From: Microbacterium sp.
Lineage (GTDB): Bacteria; Actinomycetota; Actinomycetes; Actinomycetales; Microbacteriaceae
Reading direction: 5' to 3'
Assembly: GCA_047605005.1 (NCBI GenBank)
Contig: JASGGN010000005.1
Location: 13,295 to 77,294, forward strand
DNA length: 64,000 nt
Shown: piece after piece, positions 277 through 64,000 of the stretch
Numbering within the stretch: the stretch's first letter is position 1
How the letters are laid out: each line of letters begins with the position of its first letter
Program-made: the position numbers and the translations under genes
The notes under the pieces: model-generated
The model's input: only the letters and a program-made list of their open reading frames with translations
What the model was told of the DNA's origin: nothing
The model's database searches: none

Positions 277-1734
277 TCACGACCGCACCGGGGTGCGCCC
301 ACTCGGGCGAGGCAGCAACGCGATCACCGCGAGGGCGAGCAGCGCGACGGCGCCGCCGACGACGAGGGCGAGCTGGAAGCCCGCAAGGCTCGGCGCCGTC
401 GTCCCATCGATCGTGGTCGTCATGGCGGCCAGGACGACACCGGTGACGGCGGAGGCGCCGCTCGTGCCGATCGAGCGGACGAGGGTGTTGAAGCTCGTCG
501 CAGATGCGGTCTCGCCGACCGGGACGGCCCCCATGATGAGCATGGGGATGGCGCCGTAGGCCAGTCCCACGCCGATGTTGATCACCATGATCGACCCCAT
601 GATCCCCCAGGTCGAGCCGAGCAGCAGCAGGCTCGCACCGTAACCGGCGGCGACGCCGATCGCGCCGAGCGCGAGGGTCGTCTTCGCGCCGCGCGCCGCG
701 GTCAGGCGCGCGCCGAACGGGGAGACGACCATCATCACGACGCCACCGGGAACGAGCCAAAGCGCCATCTGCAGCATCGACTGCCCGTGCCCGTACCCGG
801 TGGATGCCGGGAGCTGGAGCAGCTGCGGGAGGATGAGCGACTGCCCGTACATCGCGAAGCCGATCATCAGCGACGCGAGGTTGGTGAGGGCGACTTGCGG
901 GTTGCGCAGGCTCCGGAGGTTCACGAGCGGCTGCCGCGCGTGCACCTGCTGGAGGACCCAGAAACCGAGGAGGAACACGGCCGCGGCGAACAGGCCGAGG
1001 GTGACCGGCGAGTCCCACCCCCACGTCGCGCCCTTGGAGATCGGCAGCAGCAGCGCGGCGAGTCCACCCGACAGCAGCAGCGCACCGGGCAGGTCGAACC
1101 GGGCGCCACGAACACGACCGCTGCCGGGCGGGACGAGCCAGAGCACGAGGATCAAGGTCACCGCGGTGAGGGCGGCGAAGACGGCGAACATGATCCGCCA
1201 ACTCGCGTATTCGGCGATCGTCGCGGCGAACGGCAGCGCGATCGCCCCGCCGACGCCCATCGACGCGCTCATCGTCGCGACGGCCGAGCCGATGCGCTCG
1301 GGCGGCACGACCTCGCGCAGCAGGCTGATGCCGAGCGGCACGACGCCCATGCCGAGACCCTGCAAGGCACGTCCGGCGATCATGAGGTCGAGAGATCCGG
1401 CGACGGCGCACAGCATCGAACCGGCGGCGAGCGGGATGAGGCTCGCCAGCAGCACACGGCGCTTGCCGAGCATGTCGCCCAGACGGCCCGCGATCGGGAC
1501 GGCGACGGCGGCCGCGAGCAGGGTCGCCGTCACCGCCCACGCCGTGTCATCCGGTGCCGCATCGAGGATGCCGGGCAGCTGTCCGAGAAGCGGGACGATG
1601 AGGGTCTGGGTGCCCGCGGCGATGATGCCGGCGACGGCGAGCACGGCGACGATCGCCGTGGGCGGGCGCCGCGGCGACGTCGCGATCGTCTCGCTCGACT
1701 CGGTCTTCTTCGCCCGTTGGATGGTGGTCGTCAT
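277..1734 (-). CDS. MFS transporter (DHA2/EmrB-like, 14-TM type)
   Basis: 485 aa, hydrophobic, MFS motif A GRLGDMLGKRR, GRALQG motif. Confidence 0.9.
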   Translation of the reverse strand: MTTTIQRAKKTESSETIATSPRRPPTAIVAVLAVAGIIAAGTQTLIVPLLGQLPGILDAAPDDTAWAVTATLLAAAVAVPIAGRLGDMLGKRRVLLASLIPLAAGSMLCAVAGSLDLMIAGRALQGLGMGVVPLGISLLREVVPPERIGSAVATMSASMGVGGAIALPFAATIAEYASWRIMFAVFAALTAVTLILVLWLVPPGSGRVRGARFDLPGALLLSGGLAALLLPISKGATWGWDSPVTLGLFAAAVFLLGFWVLQQVHARQPLVNLRSLRNPQVALTNLASLMIGFAMYGQSLILPQLLQLPASTGYGHGQSMLQMALWLVPGGVVMMVVSPFGARLTAARGAKTTLALGAIGVAAGYGASLLLLGSTWGIMGSIMVINIGVGLAYGAIPMLIMGAVPVGETASATSFNTLVRSIGTSGASAVTGVVLAAMTTTIDGTTAPSLAGFQLALVVGGAVALLALAVIALLPRPSGRTPVRS

Positions 1735-1780
1735 GAGAGCAGTCCTTCGTTCGTCGGGTCGGGGCAGTGGCCTGAGCAGG

Positions 1781-2344
1781 TCAGCTCAGCAGGCGGGTTG
1801 CCTGCTCGGTGGTCTCGTAGAGCGCGTCGAACTCGCGGTCGATCAGCGGCGCGACGGCGGCCGTCCGGCGCGCCATCACACCGTGATAGGCGAGGAAGCC
1901 GCCGACCCAGCCGATGAGGCCGATCGCGCCGAGCACGATCGAGACGGCCAGCATCCCACCGTTCATGAGAAAGACTGATCCCGCGAGAAATGCGGCGCCG
2001 AAGATGCCGATGGTGACGGCGACCGCGAACGCACGGGTGGTCTTGGACTTCTCCAGCCGCGCGATGGCCGACAGCGACCCTTCGGCCTTGCGCTGGAGGG
2101 TCTGTACCAACTGCCGGTTGCGGATGTTGCGGTCGCGCTTGAGTTTGAGGGTGACCGCGGTCGGACGGATGCCCGGGGTAAACGCCCGGATCGGGCCCGC
2201 GACCTCGGTGGAATCGACGGTCCACCCGAAGCTGCGGTAGGTGTCCTGGTAGAGCGGCTCGAGGTCGCGGGGGGCGCGCACAGAAGCGTATTCGTTGGCG
2301 GCGAAGCCGGTGGGCCGGTCGGTCGGTGCGGTCAGGATGGTCAT
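1781..2344 (-). CDS. Hypothetical membrane protein (soluble N-terminus, two C-terminal TM helices)
   Basis: ATG at 2344 preceded by AAGGAG; MTILTAP...; hydrophobic hairpin near the C-terminus. Confidence 0.75.
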   Translation of the reverse strand: MTILTAPTDRPTGFAANEYASVRAPRDLEPLYQDTYRSFGWTVDSTEVAGPIRAFTPGIRPTAVTLKLKRDRNIRNRQLVQTLQRKAEGSLSAIARLEKSKTTRAFAVAVTIGIFGAAFLAGSVFLMNGGMLAVSIVLGAIGLIGWVGGFLAYHGVMARRTAAVAPLIDREFDALYETTEQATRLLS

Positions 2345-2356
2345 GATCTGGGTCTC

Positions 2357-2380
2357 CTTGCGGGATGTCTTGCGGGATGT
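2357..2380. repeat. 12-bp tandem duplication CTTGCGGGATGT x2
   Basis: Two exact copies abutting the RBS of the 1781-2344 gene. Confidence 0.85.
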
Positions 2381-2462
2381 CGATCCCGATGCCCGGCTGG
2401 GGCATGTATCGATCGTCCGCGAGCCGCCCATCGAGCGAATCGTCCCGCTGAACCGCCGTCGC

Positions 2463-2478
2463 TACTGCGCATGAAGTA
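2463..2478. promoter_or_regulatory. Putative NarL/LuxR response-regulator site TACT-N8-AGTA (site 1)
   Basis: TACTGCGCATGAAGTA in the divergent intergenic region; matches sites at 5677 and 7033. Confidence 0.55.
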
Positions 2479-2512
2479 CCTCCGCGACGACGGCGCGGGA
2501 GAGGATGAGGAC

Positions 2513-3697: not shown

Positions 3698-4265
3698 CGA
3701 CGGCGATGACCACCGTGATGCTCGTCGACGACCAGGAGATGATCCGCGCGGGCCTGCGCGTCATCATCGATGCCTACTCCGACCTCGAGGTCGTCGCCGA
3801 GGCCGGCGAGGGCTACACGGCCGTCCATCTGCTGGAGTCGACCCCGGTCGACGTCGTCCTCATGGACCTCAACATGCCCGGTATCGACGGGGTGGAGGCG
3901 GTGCGCCGCATCCGCGCCGCCCACGGTCCCGAGCGCCCACGCATCCTCGTGCTGACCACCTTCGACCAGGATCAGAACGTCCTCGCCGCACTCCGCGCGG
4001 GCGCGGACGGATTCTTCAGCAAGGGCGCGGGGCCCGCCGAGCTCGCCGACGGCATCCGCCGCATCGCGGCCGGAGCGCACGCGCTCTCGCCGACGGCGAT
4101 CGACGCGCTCGTCAGCCACGCCGCCGAAGAGCCGGTGCCTCCGTCGGACCCGGAGAAGGCCGCCCTGTTCACCGCGCTCACCCCCCGAGAGCTGGAGGTC
4201 GTCGAGCTCATCGTCACGGGTCTCGACAACGCCGAGATCAGCCGTCGCATCTTCATCTCCCCTTA

Positions 4266-5564: not shown

Positions 5565-5674
5565 TTACACCGTGAAGACGCACGCGAACCGCGCGATGAT
5601 GAAGGTCGGTGCCCGCGATCGCGCCCAGCTCGTCTCCCTCGCGATCCAGGCCGGCATCCGCGGATGAGCCCGCG

Positions 5675-18939: not shown

Positions 18940-21900
18940 TCACTGAAAATCCCGCGAGCGGTGCCGCACCCCCACGCGCAGATCCTCGAACGCGTCGGCG
19001 AGCAGGTTCGTCACCCCCTCGGGCGAGCGTTCCAGCACGCCCCGCGCGATCAGCGCCGGCGCATCGCGCAGCACCCGCCGGTACCTGCTCCACACCCCCT
19101 TCGAGCAGATCACGTTGACCAGCCCGTGCTCGTCCTCGAGGTTCAGGAACGTGATGCCGGATGCCGTCCTCGGCCGCTGCCGGTGCGTGACGAGCCCCGC
19201 GATCTCGACCCGCCGCCCGACCTCGTGCGTGCGCAGCGCGCGCGAGGTGATCACCCCGCGCGCGTCCAGCTGCACCCGGAAGTGCCCGAGCGGGTGGTCG
19301 TCGGCCGAGATGCCCGTCGCCCACAGGTCGGCCGCGAGGATGTCGTAACTCGTCTGATCGGGAAACAGCGGGGGCTGCACCGACACGAGCGTCCCGGCGA
19401 GGAACTCGGGGCGGTCCCGTGCGGCGTCCCCCGCCAGCCAGATCCCCTCGCGGCGGCTGATGCCCATGCTCTCGAAAGCACCCGCCGTCGCGAGGGCCTC
19501 GACCTGCGCCTGGGTCGCCCCCGTGCGCCGCACGAGGTCGCGCAGGTCGTGGAAGGGCCCGTCGGACTCGCGCGCCGCGACGATGCGGGATGCCAGCGGC
19601 GCGCCCACCCCCGTGACGGATGCCAGCCCGAGCCGCACCGCGAACGCGCCGTCGCGCCGATGCGCGGCCGACTCGTCGGGGGCCTCGGGGTCGAAGCCGG
19701 GCACCGGGGGCTGGCGGCGAGCGGTGCAGGCGTCCCTGCCGGTGGGGGCCGCTGAGATCAGAGGGGCCACGTCGCCGGGCGGCTCCATCCCCTCCACAGC
19801 GGCATCCGCCCCCGACGCCTGGATGTCGGGACGACGCACCCGCACGCCGTGCCGGCGCGCGTCGGCGACGAGGGACGCCGGAGAGTAGAACCCCATCGGC
19901 TGCGCCCGCAGCAGCGCCGCGAGGAACGCCGCCGGGTAGTGCAGCTTGAGCCACGACGACGCGTACACGAGCAGCGCGAACGACAGCGAGTGGCTCTCGG
20001 CGAAGCCGAAGTTCGCGAACGCCTGGATCTTCGCGTAGATGTCGTCGGCGGCTTCTCCCACCAGCCCGTTGCGCGCCATCCCCTCGTACAGCTTCGCCCT
20101 GACCGACGCGATCCGCTCGATCCCGCGTTTTGACCCCATCGCGCGGCGGAGCACATCGGCATCCTCGCCCGTGAGATCTCCGACGGCCATGCCCATCTGC
20201 ATGAGCTGCTCCTGGAAGATGGGGATGCCGAGCGTCCGCTCCAGCACGGGCTTCAGCTTCGGGTGCGCGTACGTCACGTCCTCGCGTCCCAGCTTGCGCC
20301 GCACGTACGGGTGCACCGCACCGCCCTGGATCGGCCCGGGCCGGATGAGCGCGATCTCGATCACGAGGTCGTAGAACCTGCGCGGCTGCAGGCGCGGCAG
20401 CAGGCCCATCTGCGCGCGCGACTCCACCTGGAAGACCCCGATCGCATCGGCCCGGCACAGCATGTCGTAGACCGCTGCCTCCTCCTTCGGGATCGTCGCG
20501 AGCTCCCACCGCTCGCCCGTCGAGGCCGCGATCTCATCGAAGCAGTACTGGAGCGCGGCGAGCATCCCGAGCCCCAGCAGGTCGAACTTCACCAAGCCCA
20601 TCCACGCCGCATCGTCCTTGTCCCACTGGATGACGGTGCGGTCCACCATCCGCGCGTGCTCGATCGGCACCACCTCGCCGACGGGTCGCTCGGTCAGCAC
20701 CATGCCCCCGGAATGGATGCCGAGGTGTCGTGGCGCCTTCATGAGTGCACCGGCATATTCCAGCACCCGGGCGGGAATGTCGGACCCTGATCCGGACCCA
20801 GCCGGTGATCGAGTGCCCGTGCGCAGCACGGGTGTATCGAGATCGCCCACCTGCTTCGCCCAGGCATCCTGCTGCCCGGGCGAATGCCCGAGCGCCTTCG
20901 CCATGTCGCGCACGGCATTGCGCGGCCGGTACTGGATGACGTTCGCGACCTGCGCGGCCCGATCGCGCCCGTAGGTCTGGAAGACCCACTGGATGATCTC
21001 CTCGCGCCGGTCGGAGTCGAAGTCGACATCGATGTCGGGCTCTTCGTCGCGCATCGCCGACAGGAACCGCTCGAACGGCAGCCGGTAGAAGATCGAGTCG
21101 ACCGCCGTGATGCCGAGCAGGTAGCAGACGGCGCTGTTGGCGGCCGAGCCCCGCCCCTGGCACAGGATGCCGCGGCGCCGCGCCTCGGCGACGATCCCGT
21201 GCACGATGAGGAAATACCCCGGGAAGTCCTTCTGCTCGATCACCGCCAGCTCGCGCTCGATGCGCGCGCGCCCCTCGTCGTCGAGGTCGGGGTAGGCGCG
21301 CGGGACGGCCCCCCACACGAGCTCGCGCAGCCACGACATCGGCGTGTGCCCCTCGGGAACCGGCAGCTTCGGCAGGGCAGGCCTGGCACGCCGCAGGGGG
21401 AAGGCCAGCTCGTCGGCGAGGGTCACCGTCCGCGCGATCGCGCCGGGGTGCCGGCGGAACCGCCGCATCATCTCGGCCCCCGAGCGCAGGTGCGCGCTCG
21501 CGTGCGACGGCAGCCAGCCGTCGAGCTCGTCGAGCCCGCGGTTCGCCCGCACGGCGGCGACCGCCGCGGCCAGGTGCACGCGCTCGGGAACCGCGTAGTG
21601 CACGTTGTTCGTCGCGACGACGGGCAGGCCCCGCTCGACCGCGAGGGATGCCAGCAGGTCGTTGTCGCGTGTGTCGGTCGGGTTGCCGTGGTCGATGAGC
21701 TCGACGTTCACGGCATCCCGCCCGAACCGGGCGACGAGCTCATCGAGCGCGTCGCCCACCGCCCGCGCAGCTGCCGCACCGCCGTGAACACCACCGTGTG
21801 CGAGCGCCTGCCGCACGGCGCCCTTGCGGCATCCCGTGAGGATCGCCCAGTGCCCGTCGGCGCGCTGCGCGAGCTCGTCGAGGTCGTAGCGCGGGCGGCC

Positions 21901-22413
21901 CTTCTCGCCTCCTGCCAGCTGTGCGTGCGTGATCGCGGCGGCGAGCCGGTGGTAGCCCTCCTCGCCGCGCGCGAGCACGAGCAGGTGCGCGCCTGCGGGG
22001 TCGGCGGACCCGGAGCGCGATGGATCGGGTGAGAGCGACAGCTCGGCCCCGAAAACGGTCTTCACCTCCAGTTGCTCGGCCGCTTCGGCGAACCGCACGA
22101 TCCCGTAGAACCCGTCGTGGTCGGTCACGGCGAGCGCGTGCAGCCCGAGACGCTCGGCCTCCTCGGCCAGCTCGGCAGGAGACGAGGCGCCGTCGAGGAA
22201 CGAGAACGACGAATGCGCGTGCAGCTCCGCATACGGCACCGGGTTCTCGGGCCGCACGATGGGCGGCTTCTCGTACGCGCCCCGCTTGCGCGAGAAGGCC
22301 GGCCCGTCGCCGCCATCGGGTTCGTAGAGGGGTTCGGCAGCGCGCCCACTGGTCTGCCCACTGAGCAGGCGCTCCATCTCCGACCACGTCACAGAAGGAT
22401 TGTTGAAACCCAT
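18940..22413 (-). CDS. dnaE2: Error-prone DNA polymerase III alpha (DnaE2/ImuC)
   Basis: YAELHAHSSFSFLDG PHP domain, GRGSAANS, PDIDVDF, KFDLLGLG, C-terminal SRDFQ; start MGFNNP overlaps the imuB stop (TGATG). Confidence 0.96.
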   Translation of the reverse strand: MGFNNPSVTWSEMERLLSGQTSGRAAEPLYEPDGGDGPAFSRKRGAYEKPPIVRPENPVPYAELHAHSSFSFLDGASSPAELAEEAERLGLHALAVTDHDGFYGIVRFAEAAEQLEVKTVFGAELSLSPDPSRSGSADPAGAHLLVLARGEEGYHRLAAAITHAQLAGGEKGRPRYDLDELAQRADGHWAILTGCRKGAVRQALAHGGVHGGAAAARAVGDALDELVARFGRDAVNVELIDHGNPTDTRDNDLLASLAVERGLPVVATNNVHYAVPERVHLAAAVAAVRANRGLDELDGWLPSHASAHLRSGAEMMRRFRRHPGAIARTVTLADELAFPLRRARPALPKLPVPEGHTPMSWLRELVWGAVPRAYPDLDDEGRARIERELAVIEQKDFPGYFLIVHGIVAEARRRGILCQGRGSAANSAVCYLLGITAVDSIFYRLPFERFLSAMRDEEPDIDVDFDSDRREEIIQWVFQTYGRDRAAQVANVIQYRPRNAVRDMAKALGHSPGQQDAWAKQVGDLDTPVLRTGTRSPAGSGSGSDIPARVLEYAGALMKAPRHLGIHSGGMVLTERPVGEVVPIEHARMVDRTVIQWDKDDAAWMGLVKFDLLGLGMLAALQYCFDEIAASTGERWELATIPKEEAAVYDMLCRADAIGVFQVESRAQMGLLPRLQPRRFYDLVIEIALIRPGPIQGGAVHPYVRRKLGREDVTYAHPKLKPVLERTLGIPIFQEQLMQMGMAVGDLTGEDADVLRRAMGSKRGIERIASVRAKLYEGMARNGLVGEAADDIYAKIQAFANFGFAESHSLSFALLVYASSWLKLHYPAAFLAALLRAQPMGFYSPASLVADARRHGVRVRRPDIQASGADAAVEGMEPPGDVAPLISAAPTGRDACTARRQPPVPGFDPEAPDESAAHRRDGAFAVRLGLASVTGVGAPLASRIVAARESDGPFHDLRDLVRRTGATQAQVEALATAGAFESMGISRREGIWLAGDAARDRPEFLAGTLVSVQPPLFPDQTSYDILAADLWATGISADDHPLGHFRVQLDARGVITSRALRTHEVGRRVEIAGLVTHRQRPRTASGITFLNLEDEHGLVNVICSKGVWSRYRRVLRDAPALIARGVLERSPEGVTNLLADAFEDLRVGVRHRSRDFQ

Positions 22414-24038
22414 CAGTCGTACACCCCCTCGGCCTGCCAGACGCCCTCTTCGCACACGAGCAGCCACGCGGACTGCGCGGCGTCGACGACCTGAAAGCGA
22501 TGCGCGTGCCGTGCGCGCGAGGCATCCCACCCGCGCTCGACCACGGGCCACGGGCCGGCCCAGGTGCGAATGCGGGTGCGAATGCGGGTGCGGATGCCGT
22601 GGCGGCGCCCGCCCGCGGCGAGCGGGGGCTCCACCGGTCCCGCCGGCGCGGGCAGCGTGAGCCACACGGGCTCGGCCGTCGGCTCGCCCCGCGCATCGAC
22701 GGCCACCATGTCGCCGTCGCCGTCGAGCACCGCGACCGGCACGGCCGGGTCGAACACCGTCGCCGGCAGGGGACCCGGCAGGCTACCCGGCCACGGCCGG
22801 TCGGCATCCGCGACGGGGCCGGCATCGGTCGCCCCGGCCGACACGTCGCCCCACGGCACGAGCCGCTGCCGCTCGGCGAGCCACCGCCCGCCGCCGATCT
22901 CGGCAGTGAGCACCCCCTGATGCCCGAGCATCGCCTGCACCCGGGACAGGGCATGGTGCACCCGCTCCTCCGGCCCCGAGCCGAACAGCCGCGCGGTGTG
23001 GTGGGCTGCGGCGTCCACCCCCTCCGGCTCGAGCCGCACGGCCGCGACGGCACTGCGCAGTCCGTGCTCGGCGAGCTGCCAGCGCACCCGGTCGACGATC
23101 CCGGCCGCGTCGAACGCCCCCGGGTGCAGCCACACGCGATCGCTGCGGTCGCCGCGCTCCCCCCTCAGAGCGACCCGCAGCCCCGTGCAGACGAGGCCCT
23201 GTGCGCCCAGCCGTGCCACGAACTCCTCGGCCGGCACCCGCAGCCCGAACGCGACCTGGTCGGCGAGCACGACCGCCGGCTCGAAGACGACCTCGCGGTG
23301 CAGTTCGACAGGCGGTGTCCGCGCCGTCACGGGCCGCGGATCGGCGCCGGATGCCAGGGCGTGCAGTCGCGCACCCCGCGCTCCGAACCGCTCCGTGAGC
23401 CTGTCGGCGCCGAGGGCGGCCACCTGGCCGAGCGTCTGCAGCCCGAGCCGGGCGAACAGGCTGGAGAGCTGAGAGGTCTCGTCGTCGAGCGCTGCGACCG
23501 ACAGCGGCGCGAGGAACGCGGCCGCCTGCCCCGCGGGGACGATCCGCACGGGGTCGCCCGCCCGCGTGCCCGTGCGTGCCGCCTGCTCCGCCGTGAAGAC
23601 GCCGTCACCAGCCCCGACGCGCACGTCCGTCACCCCGAGCGCCGCCACCGCGCCGACGAGCACCGTCGCGGCCGCCGCCTCTCCCCCGTAGTAGCGGGCC
23701 GGGCCCTTGGCCGCCAGCGCGCACAGCCCCGGCTGCATCAGCTGCACGCCGGGAGCCGCCTCTTCGACGGCGGCGATCAGCGGCGCGAATGCGCGGTGGT
23801 CGCGCACCGGGTCGGACTCGACGACCTTCAGATGCGGGCAGCGTGCCTGCGCGTCGCGGCGGCGCTGCCCGCGACGCACCCCCTCTGCGCGCGCGGCCAC
23901 GGAGCACGCGAGCACCGTTCCGCCCCCCGCACCGCGGGCGAGCACCGCGAGGGGGGCGGATGCCTCGGGCCGCTCGTCGCCGTCGCGCATGAGGGCGACG
24001 ACCGGCCAGTCCGGCACCCAGAGCACGATGCTGCGCAT
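22413..24038 (-). CDS. imuB: ImuB, inactive Y-family polymerase homolog
   Basis: LWVPDWPV, AR..GVRRG.RRR.AQARCP, WAGPWPV.ERGW, EGVYD end; lies between imuA' and dnaE2. Confidence 0.9.
   Translation of the reverse strand: MRSIVLWVPDWPVVALMRDGDERPEASAPLAVLARGAGGGTVLACSVAARAEGVRRGQRRRDAQARCPHLKVVESDPVRDHRAFAPLIAAVEEAAPGVQLMQPGLCALAAKGPARYYGGEAAAATVLVGAVAALGVTDVRVGAGDGVFTAEQAARTGTRAGDPVRIVPAGQAAAFLAPLSVAALDDETSQLSSLFARLGLQTLGQVAALGADRLTERFGARGARLHALASGADPRPVTARTPPVELHREVVFEPAVVLADQVAFGLRVPAEEFVARLGAQGLVCTGLRVALRGERGDRSDRVWLHPGAFDAAGIVDRVRWQLAEHGLRSAVAAVRLEPEGVDAAAHHTARLFGSGPEERVHHALSRVQAMLGHQGVLTAEIGGGRWLAERQRLVPWGDVSAGATDAGPVADADRPWPGSLPGPLPATVFDPAVPVAVLDGDGDMVAVDARGEPTAEPVWLTLPAPAGPVEPPLAAGGRRHGIRTRIRTRIRTWAGPWPVVERGWDASRARHAHRFQVVDAAQSAWLLVCEEGVWQAEGVYD
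22563..22598. repeat. In-frame 12-bp tandem repeat in imuB (GIRT-RIRT-RIRT)
   Basis: GGTGCGAATGCG x2 plus GGTGCGGATGCC. Confidence 0.85.
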
Positions 24039-25455: not shown

Positions 25456-25568
25456 CCGGCACGGCGGATGCCGCGGCAGTCGTGCACACGATGCCGAAGG
25501 ACATAGCGGCCGGAGGCATTCCGGCAGAGGGCATCCATGGTGCGGATGCGGTCTCCTGCGATGTCCAT
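25440..25568 (-). CDS. Putative 42-aa leader peptide (uORF)
   Basis: GGGGGAG RBS, MDIAGDRIRTMDALCRNASGRYVLRHRVHDCRGIRRAGKALS*, stop codon in the terminator loop. Confidence 0.45.
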   Translation of the reverse strand: MDIAGDRIRTMDALCRNASGRYVLRHRVHDCRGIRRAGKALS

Positions 25569-25703
25569 CGACTCCCCCTCGGCTTCTGCGAGCGTCGGGA
25601 TCAGGGTAATACAGTCCGAGGCCTCCGGATGACCATCCGCGGGTGCGGGTCGGCGTGTCTGGAATGACGGATGCCAGGGCGCCACGACGAACCCGCGCCG
25701 CGG

Positions 25704-32372: not shown

Positions 32373-34094
32373 GTGGCCGCATCCGACGCCCGCACCCTCG
32401 CGCACGAGCTCGAGGCGCGGGGCGATGCCGCGCTGGCGAGCCTTCTGGCCGCACGCCAGGTCTCCCCCGACGTGCCGTGGGCCGACGCGTTCGACGCGGT
32501 TGACCACTTGCTCGAGCCCGCCTCGCTCGCCCGCGCGATCGCGGCGCTGACGGCGGGCGAAGCACACACGCTGGATGTGGCGATCGCCTCCGGCGCGGCG
32601 CCGGTCGGCGCGGAGCGCGATGCCCTGATCGCGTGCGCCCTGCTGGACGAGCGCGGAGCACCGTGGGAGAGCGTCGCAGCCGCGTTCCGCGCGGCCGTTC
32701 CGATCGCGCACGAGAACATCCCCGCGGCGGCCCCGCCCGTCGACGACGACGCCGAAGCGGAGCGCGCCTTCACGGCATCCGCATCTCTGGCCGACGTGCT
32801 GCAGGAGGCGTTGTCGTCCCCGCTCGGTCGCATCGGCACCGGAACTCTCGGGGCGGTCGATCGACGCCGATTGATCGAGTCGGGCGTCGTGGCGGATGCC
32901 GCGGCCGCCGACGATCTCGTCGCGATCGCCGAGCGCACGGGCCTTCTCGCCGTCGTCGAGCGCGCCTGGCTCGTGACCTCGCGCGGGATCGCGTGGCTGC
33001 ACAGCGGCACGGTCACCCGGTGGCTCGATGTCGCGACGAGGCTGATCGCAGCGCTCCCGGCCGCCGTGCGGACGCCACACGGCGGATGGCAGGATCTCAC
33101 GGACTGGCCCGCGGCCTACCCGTTCGACCCGGCCTGGCCTGCCCGCGCGGCGGCGACGGCCACGCTGCTGAAGCGCTGGGCGGTCGTGGATGCCTCGGGC
33201 ACCGCCCCCGCCTGGTCGCAACCGGCCGCGGACGGCGACGGCTTCGACCAGGCGGCGCTCGCGGCGCTGCTCCCGCCCGAGGTCGATCGCGTGTTCCTGC
33301 AGAACGATCTTTCCGCGATCGCACCCGGCTCGCTCGCCCCCCAGCTCGACATCCGGTTGCGCTCGATGGCCCGGCGCGAGTCACGGGCACAGGCCTCCAC
33401 CTACCGGTTCACCGCTGATACGCTCGCCGACGCGCTGACCGCGGGAGAGACCGCCGCGACGCTGCGCGCGTTCCTGCTCGAGCTGTCGCTGACGGGCTTG
33501 CCCCAGCCGCTCGCGTACGAGATCGAGCGCTCGGCGAGCCGCCATGGCGCGCTGCGCGTGGGGCCGGATCGGCACGGGCGCACGCGCGTTGCGAGCGACG
33601 ACGAGGCGCTGCTGCGGACGATCGCGGTCGACCAGGCCTTGCGCCCGCTCGGTCTCGTCCCGGACGGCGACGAGTTGGTCACCCGCTCGAGTGCTGACAC
33701 CGCGTTCTGGATGATCGCGGACGCACGTTACCCCGTCGTCGCCGTGGATGCCGACGGACAGCGCCGCGCCCTCGATCGGCATCGGCTCGCGCCTGATCCG
33801 GTGCCTGACACCGAGCCGGCCGAGGTCTACGCCGAGTTGATCGCGCGCCTGCGCAGTACACAGGGGGCGGACGCGGATGCGGCGTGGCTCGCGCGCGAGC
33901 TCGAACAGGCCGTGCGCACGCGTGCGACGCTGACCGTCGCGGTGCGGATGCCCGGGGCGCCGGGCGACGCCGAACGCGAGTTCACGATCGAGGCCACGGG
34001 GCTCAGCGGCGGACGTCTGCGCGGCGTCGACAAGAACGTGGACGTCGAGCGCACGCTGCCGGTGGCGAGCATCACTCGCGTCGACACGGCGTGA
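32373..34094 (+). CDS. XPB-associated helicase C-terminal domain protein
   Basis: LQNDLSAIAPG, ESRAQASTYRF, LPQPLAYEI, ERTLPVASI; directly upstream of XPB. Confidence 0.85.
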   Translation: MAASDARTLAHELEARGDAALASLLAARQVSPDVPWADAFDAVDHLLEPASLARAIAALTAGEAHTLDVAIASGAAPVGAERDALIACALLDERGAPWESVAAAFRAAVPIAHENIPAAAPPVDDDAEAERAFTASASLADVLQEALSSPLGRIGTGTLGAVDRRRLIESGVVADAAAADDLVAIAERTGLLAVVERAWLVTSRGIAWLHSGTVTRWLDVATRLIAALPAAVRTPHGGWQDLTDWPAAYPFDPAWPARAAATATLLKRWAVVDASGTAPAWSQPAADGDGFDQAALAALLPPEVDRVFLQNDLSAIAPGSLAPQLDIRLRSMARRESRAQASTYRFTADTLADALTAGETAATLRAFLLELSLTGLPQPLAYEIERSASRHGALRVGPDRHGRTRVASDDEALLRTIAVDQALRPLGLVPDGDELVTRSSADTAFWMIADARYPVVAVDADGQRRALDRHRLAPDPVPDTEPAEVYAELIARLRSTQGADADAAWLARELEQAVRTRATLTVAVRMPGAPGDAEREFTIEATGLSGGRLRGVDKNVDVERTLPVASITRVDTA

Positions 34095-34161
34095 CCACGA
34101 CCAGCGGAGCGCGCGGCGCTGAGATCCGGGCGGCGACAAGCGCGGCGTAGACTTTTCCGCT

Positions 34162-35805
34162 ATGGCCGACGGACCCCTCATCGTGCAGAGCGACCGCACC
34201 GTACTGCTCGAAGTGGCACACCCCGACGCCGAGAGCGCCCGTCACGAGCTCGCGATCTTCGCGGAGCTCGAACGCGCCCCCGAGCACATCCACACCTACC
34301 GGATCACCCGTCTCGGCCTGTGGAACGCCCGCGCTGCGGGACATACCGCAGACGACATGCTCGCGACGCTCGACCGCTGGTCGCGCTTTCCCGTCCCGGC
34401 ATCCGTCTCGCTGGACGTGCGCGAGACCGTGAACCGCTACGGGCGCCTCGTGATCGAACGGGATGCCGAGGGCACGCTCGTGCTGCGCGCGACCGACGTC
34501 GCCGTGCTGGCGGAGGTCGCGAGGAACAAGCGCATCCAGCCGCTGCTGACCGGCCACCCCTCTCCGGGCGTGTTCACGGTGGATGCGTGGGCCCGCGGCC
34601 ACATCAAGCAAGAGCTGCTGAAGATCGGCTGGCCCGCCGAGGACCACGCCGGCTACACCCCCGGAACGCCCCACCCGATCGACCTCGCGGAGGACGGGTG
34701 GGCGCTGCGCCCCTATCAGCGCAAGGCCGTCGACATCTTCGCCAAGGACGGATCGGGCGTCGTGGTGCTTCCCTGCGGCGCCGGCAAGACGCTCGTGGGA
34801 GCGGCGGCGATGGCCGAGGCGAAGACGACCACGCTCATCCTCGTGACGAACACCGTGAGCGCCCGGCAATGGCGCGACGAGCTGCTGAGGCGCACGACCC
34901 TCACGCCCGAGGAGATCGGGGAGTACTCGGGTCAGGCGAAGGAGATCTGCCCGGTCACGATCGCGACCTACCAGATCCTCACCGCGCGGCGGCGGGGCGA
35001 GTATGCGCACCTGGCGCTGCTGGATGCCCTGGACTGGGGCCTCGTCGTCTACGACGAGGTGCACCTGCTGCCGGCCCCCGTGTTCAAGCTCACCGCCGAG
35101 CTGCAGGCACGCCGGCGCCTGGGCCTGACCGCGACGCTCGTGCGCGAGGACGGCCGCGAAGGCGACGTCTTCAGCCTGATCGGGCCCAAGCGCTTCGACG
35201 CCCCGTGGAAGGAGATCGAGGCCCAGGGCTTCATCTCCCCCGCTGTCTGCTACGAGGTGCGCATCGACCTGCCGCCGTCGGACCGCATGGAGTACGCCGC
35301 GGCGGCCGACGACGACCGCTACCGGCTCGCCGCCACCGCGCACGCGAAGATCCCCGTCGTGCGCGACCTCGTCGCGCGTCACGCGGGCGAGCAGATCCTC
35401 GTCATCGGGCAGTACCTCGACCAGATCGACGTGCTGTCACAGGCGCTGGAGGCCCCGCAGATCACCGGCGCGACCCCCGTCGACGAGCGCGAGGAGCTCT
35501 ACGGCGCGTTCCGCGAGGGGCGCATACCGGTGCTGGTCGTCTCGAAGGTCGCGAACTTCTCGATCGACCTGCCGGAGGCATCCGTCGCGATCCAGGTGTC
35601 GGGATCGTTCGGCTCCCGCCAGGAGGAGGCGCAGCGCCTCGGGCGCCTGCTGCGCCCCAAGACGAGCGGTCACACCGCGAGCTTCTACACCCTCATCGCG
35701 CGGGACACGGTCGACCAGGACTTCGCCCAGAACCGCCAGCGCTTCCTCGCCGAGCAGGGCTACAGCTACACGATCCTTGACGCCGAAGGGATCACCGCCG
35801 CGTAG
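34162..35805 (+). CDS. xpb: DNA repair helicase XPB (ERCC3/Ssl2 family)
   Basis: GPLIVQSD, LPCGAGKT, DEVH, GLTATLVRED, QRLGRLLR. Confidence 0.95.
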   Translation: MADGPLIVQSDRTVLLEVAHPDAESARHELAIFAELERAPEHIHTYRITRLGLWNARAAGHTADDMLATLDRWSRFPVPASVSLDVRETVNRYGRLVIERDAEGTLVLRATDVAVLAEVARNKRIQPLLTGHPSPGVFTVDAWARGHIKQELLKIGWPAEDHAGYTPGTPHPIDLAEDGWALRPYQRKAVDIFAKDGSGVVVLPCGAGKTLVGAAAMAEAKTTTLILVTNTVSARQWRDELLRRTTLTPEEIGEYSGQAKEICPVTIATYQILTARRRGEYAHLALLDALDWGLVVYDEVHLLPAPVFKLTAELQARRRLGLTATLVREDGREGDVFSLIGPKRFDAPWKEIEAQGFISPAVCYEVRIDLPPSDRMEYAAAADDDRYRLAATAHAKIPVVRDLVARHAGEQILVIGQYLDQIDVLSQALEAPQITGATPVDEREELYGAFREGRIPVLVVSKVANFSIDLPEASVAIQVSGSFGSRQEEAQRLGRLLRPKTSGHTASFYTLIARDTVDQDFAQNRQRFLAEQGYSYTILDAEGITAA

Positions 35806-39907: not shown

Positions 39908-41566
<1,659 letters not shown>

Positions 41567-54258: not shown

Positions 54259-55467
54259 TCAGGGGTGCGGCAGGACGAGCGCGACAGCGTAGGCAGCGAC
54301 GCCCTCTCCTGCGCCCGTGAAGCCCAGACCGTCGGTCGTCGTCGCGGCGACCGACACCGGCGCCCCGAGCACGCCCGACAGAGCCGCCTCGGCCTCGGCC
54401 CGCCGCGCCGCGAAACGCGGACGGTTCGCCTGGAACTGCACCGACACGCTCCCGATCGAAAACCCCGCCCCTTCGACGAGCTCCCGCGTGCGGGCCAGGA
54501 AGTCCTCGGCGTGCGCGCCCGCGAACTCGGGCCGCGCCGTGCCGAAGTGCGTGCCGATGTCACCGAGCCCGGCCGCGGCCAGCACCGCATCGACGATCGC
54601 GTGCGCGACCGCGTCGCCGTCCGAGTGCCCGCGCAGCGCGGGCTCACCGGGCCACCGCAGACCCGCGAGCCAGAGCGCGCCCTCGCCGCCGAAAGCGTGC
54701 ACATCGGTGCCGATGCCGATCCGTGGCGCGCCAGCGACCGTGACAACGGCGTCCGCCACGCCGCGCGGCGCGGCGCCCAGCAGCAGTCTGGCCCGCTCGA
54801 GATCGGCCGCGGTCGTGATCTTGAACGCCCGCTCGTCGCCGCGGACCGTCCACACCTCGACCCCCGAGGCCTGCACAAGCGCGGCGTCGTCGGAATGGTC
54901 GACGACGGCATCCGCATATGCGGCATCCAGCACCGTCCGCCGGAAGCCCTGCGGCGTTTGCGCGGCGGCCAGCACCGACCGGTCGACGGGCTCGACGACG
55001 AGGTCGCCGTCGACCCGCTTGATCGTGTCGACGACCGGCAGCACCGGCAGCACGGCGTCGTGACCGGCCGCGAGCGCGGCGATCACGCGCGTGAAGACAT
55101 CGGGAGGCGTCAGGGCGCGCGCCGCATCGTGGACGAGGACGAGCTCGACATCGGCCCAGACGGCGCCGAGGCCGGCCGCAACGGATGCCTGACGGGTCGC
55201 GCCGCCCGCGACGACGCTGACGAGGTCCCGGCGGTCTCCCGCGGCCTCGCGCGCCTCGGTCACGGCATCGCCGACACGATCCTCCGGCGCGACGACGATC
55301 ACCTGCGCGGTCGGTGCCGCGAAGACCCCCGCGAGCGCGTGCCGGAGGACGCTGTGCTCGTCGATGCCCACCAACGCCTTCGGAGACGCCGCGCCGAGGC
55401 GCTGCCCCGATCCTGCCGCGACGACGACGACGGCGATGCGCGGAACGGGGACGGGAGAGGTCGTCAT
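54259..55467 (-). CDS. ispDF: Bifunctional IspD/IspF (MEP pathway)
   Basis: AAGSG.RLG...PKA, VHDAAR, QTPQGF, then GIGTDVH, GHSDGD..AHA..DA, ATTTDGLGFTG. Confidence 0.93.
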   Translation of the reverse strand: MTTSPVPVPRIAVVVVAAGSGQRLGAASPKALVGIDEHSVLRHALAGVFAAPTAQVIVVAPEDRVGDAVTEAREAAGDRRDLVSVVAGGATRQASVAAGLGAVWADVELVLVHDAARALTPPDVFTRVIAALAAGHDAVLPVLPVVDTIKRVDGDLVVEPVDRSVLAAAQTPQGFRRTVLDAAYADAVVDHSDDAALVQASGVEVWTVRGDERAFKITTAADLERARLLLGAAPRGVADAVVTVAGAPRIGIGTDVHAFGGEGALWLAGLRWPGEPALRGHSDGDAVAHAIVDAVLAAAGLGDIGTHFGTARPEFAGAHAEDFLARTRELVEGAGFSIGSVSVQFQANRPRFAARRAEAEAALSGVLGAPVSVAATTTDGLGFTGAGEGVAAYAVALVLPHP

Positions 55468-60213: not shown

Positions 60214-60253
60214 GGCGCCATCCTACTCGGGGGCGCGCTGGCATCATGGGGAC

Positions 60254-61111: not shown

Positions 61112-61145
61112 CCCCCGCACCTCCTGCCTTCTCCCCCGTCGCGTG

Positions 61146-61197
61146 GTCGAAAGCTGCGCGCGCTGCGGAACTTTCGGCCGCGCGCGCAGCTTTCGGC
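61146..61197. terminator. Long hairpin between convergent genes (terminator or REP-like)
   Basis: GTCGAAAGCTGCGCGCG ... CGCGCGCAGCTTTCGGC. Confidence 0.7.
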
Positions 61198-61223
61198 AGC
61201 GCGAGGCGGCGGCGAGGCGGACC

Positions 61224-62342
61224 TCAGGCGCGCGGCAGCGCCGCGCGGGCATCGGCGGCGGGCATTCCCGCGGCCGTCATGAGATCGACAGCGAGCGGGC
61301 GGAGCGCACCGATCAGAGCCAGATCGAGGCTCGTCCCCCCTCCGCCGAGCGCGACCGGGTCCAGTCGCGCAGCGACCGCGCGCACCGCCTCACGTGCCGC
61401 CGGCTCGTAGGAGATGTCGGTGAGCGCGTCGCTGATCAGCCGCGCTCCAGCGGCGAGCTCGGCGAGCAGGTCCGCGGTCACGGGGCGCGCCGAGCCGTCG
61501 TCGCACAGGTACACGATGCGCCGTGCGATCACGCGCAGATTGCGGCCGGCCAGATCCAGCTGCGCGCGGACGCGCTCCTGCCTGTCGAACTCGGCGCGCT
61601 GCCGACGCAGGAACGGAGATATCTTCGCGATCGCCGCACCCGACTCGATTCCCGCGCGCCACAGTTCGATCGGGCCGTCCAAGGCGCGAGCCTTCGTGAG
61701 TCCGCGCTCGGCGCGGCGACGGTCGCCCCGCCGCAACGCCTGGACGAGGGTCGACGCCGCGGAGTCGAACTTGGCCAGCGCGGCGACGCCCTCCCGCGTG
61801 ACGCTTCGCAGCGGACTGCGCGGGACGAGAGCCGTCACCAGCAGTGCCGCGACAGCTCCGATGATGCCGTCGATCACGCGCACGAAGGGCACGCTGGCCG
61901 GGATCACCAGGACGATCGCGGACTGGATCGCGGCCGCGATCGCGAAGGCGGGATTGTCCGACAGGAACCGCGCGACGACGAGGCTCGCCGAAAGCGTCAG
62001 CGCCAGCTGCCACCAGCCGATCCCCGCGACGAAGACGATGAGCTCGGCGATCAGGATGCCGACGACCATCCCGGTCACGGTCTCGAGCACGCGCCGGGGA
62101 CGGGCGTCGCGGACGAACCCGAGGCTCGAGACGGTGACCGTCGCCGTCACGAGCGGAGTGGTGTGACCGAGGACGTCGTGCGCGATCGCGAAGGCGGCGG
62201 TCGCCGCGACGACGACCTGGATGATCGCCGGCAGAGACTCCCGCACGCGCTGCATCCCGGGCCGCGGAGAGAGGCGGGCGCGCAGCCCGGAGCGAACCGC
62301 GACAGCCTCTGTCAGCGGGGCGGGGACATCCTTCGCCATCAT
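61224..62342 (-). CDS. FUSC / aromatic acid exporter family membrane protein
   Basis: N-terminal TM block (LGH..P..A...SSLG...R..E...G), helical C-terminus. Confidence 0.82.
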   Translation of the reverse strand: MMAKDVPAPLTEAVAVRSGLRARLSPRPGMQRVRESLPAIIQVVVAATAAFAIAHDVLGHTTPLVTATVTVSSLGFVRDARPRRVLETVTGMVVGILIAELIVFVAGIGWWQLALTLSASLVVARFLSDNPAFAIAAAIQSAIVLVIPASVPFVRVIDGIIGAVAALLVTALVPRSPLRSVTREGVAALAKFDSAASTLVQALRRGDRRRAERGLTKARALDGPIELWRAGIESGAAIAKISPFLRRQRAEFDRQERVRAQLDLAGRNLRVIARRIVYLCDDGSARPVTADLLAELAAGARLISDALTDISYEPAAREAVRAVAARLDPVALGGGGTSLDLALIGALRPLAVDLMTAAGMPAADARAALPRA

Positions 62343-62344
62343 CG

Positions 62345-63448
62345 TCAGCGTCGACGCGAGAGCCGGGGAAGTCGCGGGACGGCGGCGGTGCGTCCGGCAT
62401 CCGGCGGGACGATCGTCTCCTGCGCGGCGGCGATCTCGCCGTCACAGGTCGCGACGCGGAGCGGCGCCTCGACCGGAACCGCCCGCTTGATGAGGGCGAG
62501 GGCGATGGGGCCGTCCTCGAAGTGACGCGCCGATGACGTCACCGCCCCGACGACCTCGCCGTCGTACGAGACGTCGGCCCCCGAGCCCGGCAGGGCGCCG
62601 CCGGTGCCGTCGAGCTGCAGCGCCACCAGGCGCCGCGGCGGATGACCGAGGTTGTGCACCTTCGCGACCGTCTCCTGCCCGCGGTAGCACCCCTTGTCGA
62701 GGTGCACCGCCGTGCGCAGCCAGTCCACCTCGTGCGGCAGGGTGCGGCCGTCGGCCTCACGAGCCGCGGTCGGACGCCAGGCAGCCACACGCAGGGCCTC
62801 GGCCGCGAGCTGCCCGGCGATCGGCCGGGTTCCGGCGGTCGCAGCGCGCGCGACGCGCTCGTATTCGTCCCGACCGACGATCGCCTCCGCCCAGTCGCGG
62901 TCCGCGCCGGGGTGGGGAGCGGTCGCGGCGTACCCCCAGCCCCCGTCGGCGACGCCGGGCCAGGGGTCGCGCCAGACGGCCGTCGCGACCAACGACGCGA
63001 CCGCTGCCGCGCTCCCGCCGATGACGTGGTGCGTGGCCGAGGCGTCTTGCGGGTCGACGTGCAACCGGAACCGCATCCGGTTCAGCCACGCCAGCAGCGT
63101 CGCCGCCCGCGGCCGGTCGACGATCAGCCACGTGCGCTCACCGTCGTCGACAGCGGCCGCCGCGTGCTCGACGTGCCCGTGCGGATCGAGCACGAGCAGC
63201 TCGGTGCTGTGGCCCGGCGGGAGAGAGGCGAGCGCCTGCGAGGTGATCGAGTCGAGCCAGCTGAGCCGATCGGCACCGGCGACCGTCAGGACCGCGCGAG
63301 CCTCCAGCGGCGCAACGGCGAGACCGGATGCCAGGGCGCGCTGTTCGCGGTGCGGCGAGCCGACGTGGGCGAGCCCGTCGTCATCGAAGACCGCGCCGGG
63401 GACCGCCGCGAACGCATCCGCGGCCGGGGCGAGCATGCCGCCGCTCAT
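62345..63448 (-). CDS. ygfZ: YgfZ/GcvT-like folate-binding protein
   Basis: KGCYRGQE motif, G.DRLSWL. Confidence 0.9.
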   Translation of the reverse strand: MSGGMLAPAADAFAAVPGAVFDDDGLAHVGSPHREQRALASGLAVAPLEARAVLTVAGADRLSWLDSITSQALASLPPGHSTELLVLDPHGHVEHAAAAVDDGERTWLIVDRPRAATLLAWLNRMRFRLHVDPQDASATHHVIGGSAAAVASLVATAVWRDPWPGVADGGWGYAATAPHPGADRDWAEAIVGRDEYERVARAATAGTRPIAGQLAAEALRVAAWRPTAAREADGRTLPHEVDWLRTAVHLDKGCYRGQETVAKVHNLGHPPRRLVALQLDGTGGALPGSGADVSYDGEVVGAVTSSARHFEDGPIALALIKRAVPVEAPLRVATCDGEIAAAQETIVPPDAGRTAAVPRLPRLSRRR

Positions 63449-64000
63449 TCCACCCGCGCCAGTCGCGCCGAGGCGTGCGAGGCGAGCGGCTCACCGAGGG
63501 CGGCGACGTCCCACGCCCACAACAGGTGACCGTCGACATAGCCGTACATGCGCGTCGCGGCGGAGTAGGCCTTGGCGCTCGCCGGCCGGACGATCGCGTC
63601 GGATGCCAGGTCGATGCGCGGCCCGCGGACCTGCCCCAGGTACAGCTCGCTGGAGCCGTCGGAGTGGACGATCGCGACCTCCAGGTCGAATCCGCCCTGC
63701 GCGCCGCGGAGCGCCTCGATGTCGTCAGCCGTGCGCACGGCGCGAGCACCGCGCGCCGGCAGCAGCGCCGGTCCGGGATCCGCGTCGGAAGCGGCGCGGG
63801 CGAGTCGCCAGAACCCGGTCTCCGCGACCAGGGGCGTGCGCGCGCCGTCGTCGGCGAGCAGCCAGGCGCTCGCGGAATAGTTGACGTAGTCGCCGCCGTC
63901 GTGACTGAAACTGGCCCGATAGCCGAACTCGCCGCCGACACGCGTGCCGTCGACCCCGTAGTCGATGACCCCGGTGCCTTCCCAGACGCCCAGCAGCCAG
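63445..64000 (-). CDS. FABP/nitrobindin-like protein (5' end outside the window)
   Basis: WLLGVWEGTG, SFSHDG, ETGFWR, RMYGYVDG.L.WAWD, HASARL. Confidence 0.85.
   Translation of the reverse strand, partial: WLLGVWEGTGVIDYGVDGTRVGGEFGYRASFSHDGGDYVNYSASAWLLADDGARTPLVAETGFWRLARAASDADPGPALLPARGARAVRTADDIEALRGAQGGFDLEVAIVHSDGSSELYLGQVRGPRIDLASDAIVRPASAKAYSAATRMYGYVDGHLLWAWDVAALGEPLASHASARLARVE

Follow-up and report, generated by a model that had tools for sequence, protein, structure and literature searches.

To our knowledge, hyper-abundant "self" words are known only from a few lineages, namely the Neisseriaceae, the Pasteurellaceae, the cyanobacteria, and, as Chi words, the bacteria that possess RecBCD or AddAB. 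Such words have given access to the mechanisms of DNA uptake, to the control of recombination, and to the distinction between self and non-self. Here we describe the heptamer GGATGCC (GGCATCC on the complementary strand), which is iterated through a 64-kb window (the whole stretch of Microbacterium DNA that was analysed) and through the genome from which it derives. Our literature search found no published description of GGATGCC in this sense, and nothing on GGATCC in Clavibacter or on iterated palindromes in the Actinobacteria.

The uptake sequences of the Neisseriaceae (DUS; PMC3630211) and Pasteurellaceae (USS; PMC1939737) are short words found at around one per kb, in both orientations and with no replication skew; they occupy genes and spacers, are written against coding preferences, are spaced more evenly than chance, fall into lineage-specific dialects, and are poorer in foreign DNA. 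GGATGCC shares all of these features, its dialects being GGATGCC itself, GGATGCT, GGATGCG and GGATCC. In Haemophilus, uptake is independent of the orientation of the USS (PMC1939737), whereas the redundancy between GGATGCC copies is limited to those in the same orientation, and in this respect the heptamer does not behave as an uptake sequence. It is also shorter (7 bp against 9–12 bp), and has few terminator-type inverted pairs.

The Chi words of RecBCD and AddAB, for example GCTGGTGG and AGCGG, are asymmetric words of 5–8 nt, read on one strand by a translocating enzyme, and all of those known to us are co-oriented with replication. GGATGCC resembles them in its asymmetry, in an orientation dependence inferred from its spacing, in its enrichment in the core genome and resident DNA, and in differing between related taxa. 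It departs from them in having no co-orientation with replication, in its density of around one per kb per strand, with a palindromic dialect (GGATCC), and in the enzymes present: RecC was found in none of 151 family genomes, which speaks against RecBCD as a reader and leaves AdnAB as the only such end-resection complex found. AdnAB is regarded as possibly Chi-independent, no Chi being known for it (PMC5314763).

HIP1 (GCGATCGC) of the cyanobacteria is, like GGATGCC, hyper-abundant, overrides codon choice, is lost in some lineages, and gives way to variant words in others (PMC5861425, PMC4390886, PMC13756078, bioRxiv 10.1101/2024.09.10.611283). It raises transformation through uptake or processing, in a Chi-like manner (bioRxiv 10.1101/2024.09.10.611283). 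The parallel extends to the sister dialect GGATCC, a palindrome containing GATC, and to a conserved orphan methylase in the family; GGATGCC differs, however, in being asymmetric, in that its sites are not conserved in position, and in that the orphan methylase (PF01555) is missing here and present in word-free lineages.

Two further systems were compared. Very-short-patch repair by Dcm/Vsr leaves an excess of CCWGG (about 1.3-fold in E. coli) and a deficit of CTWGG, and repair is established as a way of driving a short word to excess. The excess here is 8-fold, neither Vsr nor an m5C methylase was found in the Microbacterium genome, and the deficit of deaminated neighbours is absent, so this origin was rejected. 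The polar architecture words KOPS and AIMS switch skew at the origin and terminus, a behaviour absent for GGATGCC.

Abundance of the word in the window and the genome

The window holds 125 copies between 802 and 63607 (58 GGCATCC and 67 GGATGCC on the + strand), against 16.6 ± 3.9, with a maximum of 29, in dinucleotide-preserving shuffles. Within called genes lie 113 of these, where 200 synonymous-codon shuffles gave 29.8 ± 4.3 and at most 42. The densest gene is dnaE2, encoding the error-prone Pol III alpha subunit (18943..22392, − strand), with 12 copies in 3.45 kb; the imuB-like gene (22416..24038, −) has five, the XPB helicase gene (34162..35802, +) four, at 34398 (+), 34461 (−), 35022 (−) and 35577 (+), and groEL (39911–41530, −) a single copy at 41087..41093 (−). 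The 12 non-genic copies comprise three within 25466..25675 (25466 −, 25530 + and 25669 −), and those at 5653, 7314, 16318, 18910, 36950, 39509, 41637, 60288 and 63601. The original prediction, made by hand, had counted about 64 copies in the first 31 kb, with the motif running on through the rest of the window and occurring in groEL, XPB and intergenic DNA; the recount gives exactly 64, and the remaining statements agree with the positions above.

The 2.4-Mb genome contains 4,766 copies (1.99 per kb), corresponding to around one per kb on each DNA strand. This is 8.4 times the order-0 Markov expectation, 5.2 times that at order 3, and 1.33 times that at maximal order (z = 41). The original prediction had staked itself on the word being an outlier among 7-mers and on its excess surviving a dicodon-preserving null: GGATGCC ranks first genome-wide among all words at k = 5, 6 and 7, and the 4,122 genic copies compare with 1,036 under an amino-acid-preserving codon shuffle and 1,701 under a dicodon-conditioned null that already includes part of the signal (z = 59). 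Spacers carry 1.73 copies per kb and genes 2.02.

All six frames are enriched over the codon shuffle, with G|GCA|TCC at 26-fold, G|GAT|GCC at 7-fold, and GGA|TGC|C at 6-fold; the dicodons of the first two, GCA-TCC and GAT-GCC, are those named in the original prediction. The genome offers 11,894 places at which synonymous change would permit the word, and 35% are filled; for GGA|TGC|C the figure is 68%, though GGA makes up only 9% of glycine codons. Similarly, G precedes GAT-GCC in 80% of cases (13–22% for synonymous dicodons) and GCA-TCC in 93% (25–39%). The core is exactly 7 bp long, its flanks merely disfavouring G before and C after, and a longer element or 8-mer was rejected, the trailing G (65%) being near the context background. 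Among one-mismatch neighbours of the heptamer, no position-specific depletion was seen across the genome. The word is kept up at the DNA level, independently of coding and against codon preference.

Orientation and spacing

Orientation alternates between neighbouring copies, 1,866 pairs being alike and 2,804 unlike (label permutation, 2,319 ± 35). The occupancy of permissive places climbs from 0.22 to 0.47 as the nearest copy in the same orientation lies farther off, and shows no rise across the genome with distance to the nearest copy in the opposite orientation. Same-orientation pairs of places within 200 bp are jointly occupied at 0.49–0.67 of expectation, while opposite-orientation pairs beyond 60 bp are at or above 1. 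Interference between same-orientation copies reaches around 300 bp, with none between opposite orientations, and close same-orientation pairs, such as that at 54907..54928 (+ strand, 15 bp apart), occur genome-wide at about half the expected rate. The mean spacing on the same strand is 962 bp.

Copies are also spread more evenly than at random (CV 0.94, where permuting the labels gives 1.05), and the balance of orientations, taken in windows of 20 kb, is under-dispersed (chi-square 39, 80 df). Across the genome there is no replication skew, no correlation of orientation with GC skew, and no transcription polarity, which agrees with the original description of mixed orientations free of Chi- or KOPS-type polarity. 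Pairs of the form GGATGCC-N(0-5)-GGCATCC stand at 2.7 times expectation; close inverted pairs are few and mostly inside genes, and terminator-type hairpins were discarded as an explanation. Judged from spacing, not from activity, the word would be read on one strand, or in one direction, at a time.

Dialects, distribution and foreign DNA

Most Microbacteriaceae carry GGATGCC, some lineages use GGATGCT, GGATGCG or GGATCC, and a few are without a word. The ratio of the word to its controls varies continuously from 0.9 to 25 across 150 other family genomes, with the present genome among the highest in density in the samples searched, and from 0.9 to 4.8 in 114 genomes of 23 other families; the word is restricted to the Microbacteriaceae and is not seen in other families of the order. 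GGATGCT reaches 2,101–2,548 copies in two Microbacterium genomes, against around 400 for controls, and GGATGCG is the dominant word in one Leifsonia. Clavibacter and one Microbacterium, both without the heptamer, have the palindrome GGATCC at 1.6–2.0 per kb, compared with 0.2–0.4 per kb elsewhere, and in Clavibacter the palindrome overrides codons as GGATGCC does here. In M. gilvum and Frigoribacterium no dominant word was found. All four words fit GGATSC, and the word changes by single letters between and within genera; these one-letter variants point to a protein that reads it.

Individual sites turn over between species while density stays. At 78–82% nucleotide identity, 0–33% of motif sites are conserved, against 21–32% of all 7-mers, so that orthologous positions show no conservation above that of average 7-mers, a result that a continuous drive would explain as well as selection would.

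The word is less dense in atypical genes and in mobile DNA. Genes of lowest GC3 hold 1.0 copies per kb, against 2.1–2.3 in other genes; on plasmid pCM2 the density stands at 1.9 times expectation and on the chromosome at 4 times; and three phages of around 70% GC are at the codon baseline, the word being neither enriched nor avoided.

Alternative explanations

The original prediction offered a methyltransferase or repair bias, a nucleoid protein, and an uptake or recombination system as ways of maintaining a genome-wide motif. Maintenance linked to methylation, as for HIP1 or Dcm/Vsr, would have an orphan methylase mark the word, with coupled repair or recognition driving its accumulation. The family does possess a conserved candidate, a beta-class PF01555 orphan DNA methylase that is 72–78% identical between genera, adjoins lplA or spoU/purA with no nuclease alongside, and is present in 5/5 complete word-rich genomes and in 11/11 named genomes chosen blind to word status. 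Orphan methylases, moreover, recognise HIP1, whose effect on transformation is methylation-dependent (PMC4390886; bioRxiv 10.1101/2024.09.10.611283). Yet the PF01555 methylase is missing from the word-dense Microbacterium genome, in which the syntenic site is intact and the remainder of the assembly (83% complete) contains no copy; it is found on 15 of 41 metagenomic contigs without the word, among them L181 and L227, which are of high GC; and its core is nearly invariant across dialects. It appears neither necessary nor sufficient, and was set aside as the maintainer. The only DNA methylase found in the Microbacterium genome, an Eco57I-like enzyme, was rejected as the cognate, as it occurs in only 8/150 other family genomes, not the richest, and lies on a contig (C42) that is itself word-poor. 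Neither this genome nor any of five complete word-rich relatives yielded a Vsr; among the relatives, an m5C methylase was found in two and a Dam-type methylase in none. The absence of depletion among one-mismatch neighbours also speaks against methylation, and a repair bias leaves the orientation-specific spacing unexplained, making this account improbable. Maintenance at the DNA level stands from the original proposal; its methyltransferase or repair bias found no support.

Equally improbable is that the word binds an abundant protein of the nucleoid or of chromosome organisation, and that selection favours its even distribution along the chromosome. The even spacing and locally balanced orientation would suit such a role, as would the excess of close inverted pairs and a palindromic dialect suited to a dimeric binder, and HIP1 has been tied to nucleoid structure (PMC5861425). 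A protein that binds double-stranded DNA should, however, make the two orientations redundant, and nearby opposite copies leave occupancy unlowered; furthermore, no candidate protein was found, and word-free species of the same genus live without the word.

Less probable again are strand-specific entry or nick sites for excision-type repair, a counterpart of GATC/MutH in which each strand needs a site within around 1 kb. The two strands are indeed covered separately, at a mean same-strand spacing close to this distance, replication skew is absent, and the Microbacteriaceae presumably lack MutS/MutL. The one-letter dialects resemble the output of restriction-type recognition domains, all fitting GGATSC, which we take to contain the type IIS cores GGATG and GGATC. 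No nickase or MutH-like gene was identified, however, relatives without the word exist, and phages neither avoid nor collect it.

A neutral, context-dependent mutation or repair bias that generates a functionless heptamer has a similarly slight probability. Sites are not conserved in position between species, density is continuous across the family, and the resident plasmid is partly enriched, as such a bias would have it; but a local process cannot sense a same-orientation copy 50–300 bp away, the excess requires all seven positions together, and the word switches by one letter within genera. Finally, an origin in codon usage, in dipeptide composition or in some repeated element can practically be discarded: GGC-ATC-C does consist of preferred codons, giving a baseline of around 2–3 times expectation in other families and phages, but the codon-shuffle and dicodon nulls both fall short of the count, spacers approach genic density, and sequence conservation stops at 7 bp.

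A proposed strand-read word and its candidate readers

Of the three mechanisms originally proposed, uptake or recombination fits best. Our best reading, to which we assign about an even chance, is that GGATGCC serves as a "self" word, read by strand, in recombination or in the processing of DNA during uptake. By analogy, it would join the class of uptake sequences, Chi, and HIP1 as the recognition word of a putative chromosomal, strand-reading DNA-processing protein, a placement in which belief and doubt are evenly balanced. The word would mark resident DNA and improve its fate in uptake, resection or recombination. Copies would arise through point mutation where the protein sequence permits, and either weak selection or biased conversion would retain them, each further copy on a strand bringing less; should the specificity of the reader shift, the old word would decay and a new one accumulate.

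Two candidate machines can be envisaged: one is the AdnAB helicase-nuclease, which would act in a Chi-like manner where a break has two ends or linear DNA enters the cell, and the other is a step of DNA uptake that handles single strands. We know of no reported uptake specificity in the Actinobacteria, nor of competence, uptake specificity or a receptor in the Microbacteriaceae. The Microbacterium genome encodes an AdnA/AdnB pair and ComEC. An intact AdnA/AdnB pair and TadA-like ATPases are also present in word-free genomes, and ComEC in 148/151 family genomes regardless of word status; the presence or absence of these genes does not discriminate between word-rich and word-free genomes. A more specific proposal, which we consider unlikely but worth stating, is that GGATSC(N) controls a recombination machine of the Microbacteriaceae that reads by strand, and would be either the first Chi-like AdnAB signal or the first sequence-specific uptake step in the Actinobacteria; on this view the specificity of the reader has changed more than once within genera, one of the changes being to a palindrome able to serve the two strands at once.

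GGATGCC provides a clean new case of an iterated word, and the Gram-positive, high-GC family that carries it is large and culturable, with Microbacterium, Clavibacter and Leifsonia among its genera. The natural experiments within this family, in the form of one-letter dialects, a palindromic dialect and word-free congeners, make the reader findable, and permit a direct test of whether AdnAB-type enzymes respond in a Chi-like manner, which is unknown (PMC5314763). The word is, in addition, a sharp marker of native versus acquired DNA, and it could improve gene-targeting constructs for the Microbacteriaceae, as HIP1 does in the cyanobacteria.

Abundance of the heptamer in the window and the genome

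GGCATCC/GGATGCC occurs 125 times in the window, where shuffles that preserve dinucleotide composition yield 16.6 ± 3.9, and an exact recount of its first 31 kb returned 64, the approximate figure of the original prediction. Across the whole genome there are 4,766 copies (1.99 per kb), which is 8.4, 8.2, 7.5, 5.2, 2.2 and 1.33 times the expectation under Markov models of orders 0 to 5, respectively. The word and its sub-words occupy the top of the z-score lists for k = 5, 6 and 7, the heptamer heading the 7-mer list, and the lists for k = 8–10 contained no stronger signal. The conserved core is 7 bp, with flanks that just disfavour a longer G-run or C-run.

The assembly comprises 2.396 Mb in 96 contigs (83% complete, 69.9% GC). 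By gene content the window (G000:C5:13295-77294, G000 being this genome) is ordinary chromosome, encoding dnaE2 and imuB, an XPB helicase, groEL, cysS, a GH3 glycosidase and a histidine kinase. Its GroEL shares 97% identity with the protein of an uncultured Microbacterium, and the lipoate ligase of the genome is 91–92% identical to the M. lacticum enzyme. The densest stretch of the window is the imuB-dnaE2 mutagenesis cassette (18943-24038, minus strand), with 17 copies in 5.1 kb. The XPB helicase, with its ERCC3/RAD25 C-terminal domain, lies with its upstream gene at 32373-35802 on the plus strand; the 573-aa protein encoded immediately upstream has a Helicase_C_3 domain and may be an XPB partner.

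Other repeats were also encountered in this genome. A repeated intergenic element of ~40 bp has the word at both ends as an inverted pair (GGCATCC-CTTCAC..GGCAGTCGTGG..-GGATGCC). Its copies lie at C24:15882, C28:1486, C29:2612 and C29:2696, and it may represent a REP-like unit or a small structured RNA. Over-representation was also seen for TAACTCAGG/CCTGAGTTA (60 copies; its 7-bp core TAACTCA 63 times, 10 expected), TGTGTCGGCA (28 copies, 6.4 expected) and GGGGGAG (660, 419 expected).

Independence from coding

In the 2,055 genes called from codon statistics (85% of the genome), 4,122 copies were observed, against 1,036 after synonymous codon shuffling within genes. The excess is present in all six frames: G-GCA-TCC (1,037 observed, 40 shuffled) and G-GAT-GCC (1,804, 257), whose uncommon A/T-ending codons do host copies as first suggested, as well as GGA-TGC-C (73, 12), xGG-CAT-CCx (116, 19), GGC-ATC-C (969, 643) and xGG-ATG-CCx (123, 66). 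It also survives a dicodon null, in which each codon is drawn given the preceding one from the genome's own dicodon table: 1,701 copies are expected (z = 59), even though this null already contains part of the signal. The base preceding the dicodon is similarly constrained, G standing before 80% of GAT-GCC and 93% of GCA-TCC, compared with 13–22% and 25–39% for the respective synonymous dicodons. The presence of copies in intergenic DNA was substantiated, with 1.73 per kb in spacers and 2.02 in genes. Taken together, the two nulls, the six-frame excess and the spacer density rule out a coding effect as the source of the word.

Of the 11,894 permissive places, where the encoded protein could accommodate the word by synonymous codons, 35% are filled; the proportion is 88% where there is no codon cost and 23–31% where a rare codon is required. 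Dipeptides able to host the word are mildly elevated (GI 1.27, DA 1.19; the corresponding values in a relative lacking the word are 1.00 and 1.02), and in Clavibacter it is GS and DP that are raised, matching that genus's own word, GGATCC. These excesses hint that the words slightly bend protein sequence.

Orientation and spacing

The two orientations are equally frequent, and across the whole genome orientation corresponds neither to GC skew nor to gene strand, in agreement with the mixed, non-polarised pattern, unlike Chi or KOPS, originally described. Neighbouring copies share orientation in 1,866 cases and are opposed in 2,804, where label permutation gives 2,319 ± 35, an excess of alternation. 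Gaps are near exponential when strand is ignored; on the same strand, there is a deficit of gaps below 200 bp (z = -6 to -7) and an excess at 0.5–1.5 kb. Permissive places are filled in 22% of cases with a same-orientation copy within 100 bp and in 46–48% with the nearest such copy at 0.75–2 kb; a nearby opposite-orientation copy produces no drop. Joint occupancy of same-orientation pairs is 0.49–0.67 of expectation up to 200 bp, 0.82 at 200–400 bp and 0.90 at 400–800 bp, and for opposite-orientation pairs it is at least equal to expectation past 60 bp. At 0–5 bp, GGATGCC followed by GGCATCC occurs 41 times (15 expected) and the reverse order 4 times (13 expected).

From this spacing we infer that GGATGCC is recognised on each strand separately. 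A purely mutational origin is poorly compatible with it, since a local bias would be blind to a same-strand copy 100–300 bp away and so is insufficient to explain repulsion at that distance, for which diminishing returns per strand would suffice.

Distribution, dialects and turnover

In Microbacteriaceae, copies of the word divided by those of its reversed control form a continuum from 0.9 to 25 across 150 other genomes (101 genera), roughly 60% of which, as read from the table, reach at least 5; this genome stands at 20.9. In 23 other families of the order (114 genomes) the ratio is 0.9–4.8. Two Microbacterium genomes poor in GGATGCC have 2,101 and 2,548 copies of GGATGCT (controls ~400), M. 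lacus has both forms, and in one Leifsonia GGATGCG dominates. Two genomes without the heptamer are rich in the palindrome GGATCC: one Microbacterium (1.64 per kb) and Clavibacter nebraskensis (2.0 per kb). In the other genomes it stands at 0.2–0.4 per kb, and in G000 it is two-fold depleted (548 sites, 0.47 of the order-1 expectation). In Clavibacter it occupies 37–74% of permissive places, with mutual repulsion of sites within 50 bp. All four forms match GGATSC, and dialects switch inside genera (G025 and G125; G000, G175 and M. gilvum). No word of any kind dominates in M. gilvum or Frigoribacterium faeni.

Individual sites turn over between species. Around groEL, in 31 relatives of 77–85% nucleotide identity, 0–33% of word sites are conserved, against 20–43% for average 7-mers, and this also holds between word-rich genomes; the commonest counterparts are the codon-preferred CGACGCC and GGACGCC. 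The word-poor stretches of G000 are lower-GC islands, and the lowest GC3 decile of genes has 1.0 copies per kb, versus 2.1–2.3. Three phages of M. foliorum (~70% GC) carry 0.56–0.68 copies per kb, chiefly sense GGC-ATC-C; this is the codon baseline, so they neither accumulate nor shun the word. The Clavibacter plasmid pCM2 is intermediate, at 1.9 times expectation (chromosome, 4 times). Phage Zeta1847 (MH271320, locus L087) has words of its own: CGAGCTC 257 times in 48 kb (28 expected), and GTTTACA/GTGTAAA 22–23 times (0.3 expected), a pair shared with phage Floof.

Methylases, recombination and uptake genes

Maintenance by a methyltransferase or repair bias, as originally proposed, found no support. 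Searches of the 83%-complete assembly for Vsr and for m5C, PF01555 and Dam-type methylases were negative, as was the search for Vsr in five complete word-rich genomes. The sole methylase found is a stand-alone Eco57I-like N6-adenine enzyme on a lower-GC, word-poor contig (G000:C42:15001-16662; L081:1471-3135), present in 8 of the 150 other genomes, the richest not among them. Searching complete genomes for PF01555 revealed a conserved orphan beta-class DNA methylase, 72–78% identical between genera, that adjoins lplA or spoU/purA with no neighbouring nuclease gene, and lies directly 3' of lplA in M. lacticum, M. aurum and M. protaetiae. It accompanies the heptamer in all 11 named genomes, chosen blind to word status. 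The gene is, however, missing from G000 at an intact syntenic site (C4:33034-35608; locus L144, compared with L145, L146 and L147), 15 of 41 metagenomic contigs bearing it lack the word (11 low-GC, two clearly high-GC), and its core is almost invariant across dialects. Our conclusion is that this methylase belongs to the family's housekeeping genes and does not determine the word. The Clavibacter enzyme (L137; proteins P0126, P0144) has a Pro/Ala-rich linker and a Lys/Ala/Pro-rich C-terminal tail resembling histone H1, features not seen in most other genera; M. protaetiae and Gryllotalpicola have a comparable linker and no tail.

RecC was found in none of the 151 Microbacteriaceae genomes. AdnA and AdnB are encoded in G000 and intact in word-free genomes as well, ComEC is present in 148 of 151, and TadA-like ATPases in all genomes tested; the presence or absence of these genes does not discriminate word status. 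AdnA (L129-L133) is only 53–55% identical between Microbacterium species with GroEL 92–94% identical to that of G000, a fast rate of change for a repair enzyme.

Interpretation

GGATGCC resembles uptake sequences in density, absence of polarity and dialects; Chi in its asymmetry and in the orientation-specific action suggested by spacing; and HIP1 in its palindromic sister word GGATCC and its override of codon choice, yet it lacks one defining feature of each. A literature search found no paper describing the word. New here are the dicodon test, the confirmation at whole-genome scale that the T, G and palindromic dialects exist and that some species truly lack a word, the limit at order level (other families being without it), the exclusion of RecBCD and Vsr by gene searches, and the conserved orphan methylase with the evidence against a determinant role.

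The data support a role of GGATGCC as a recognition word that weak selection or a conversion drive maintains. A candidate reader protein would read it on one strand or in one direction, and the specificity of this protein would drift. A role in recombination or in uptake processing of self DNA leaves the rest of the probability to four other readings, namely methylation-linked maintenance, a nucleoid protein, nick entry and mutation alone. To that role, in which the word would serve either as a Chi-like signal for AdnAB or in a single-strand step of uptake, with about equal weight on each, we give an even chance.
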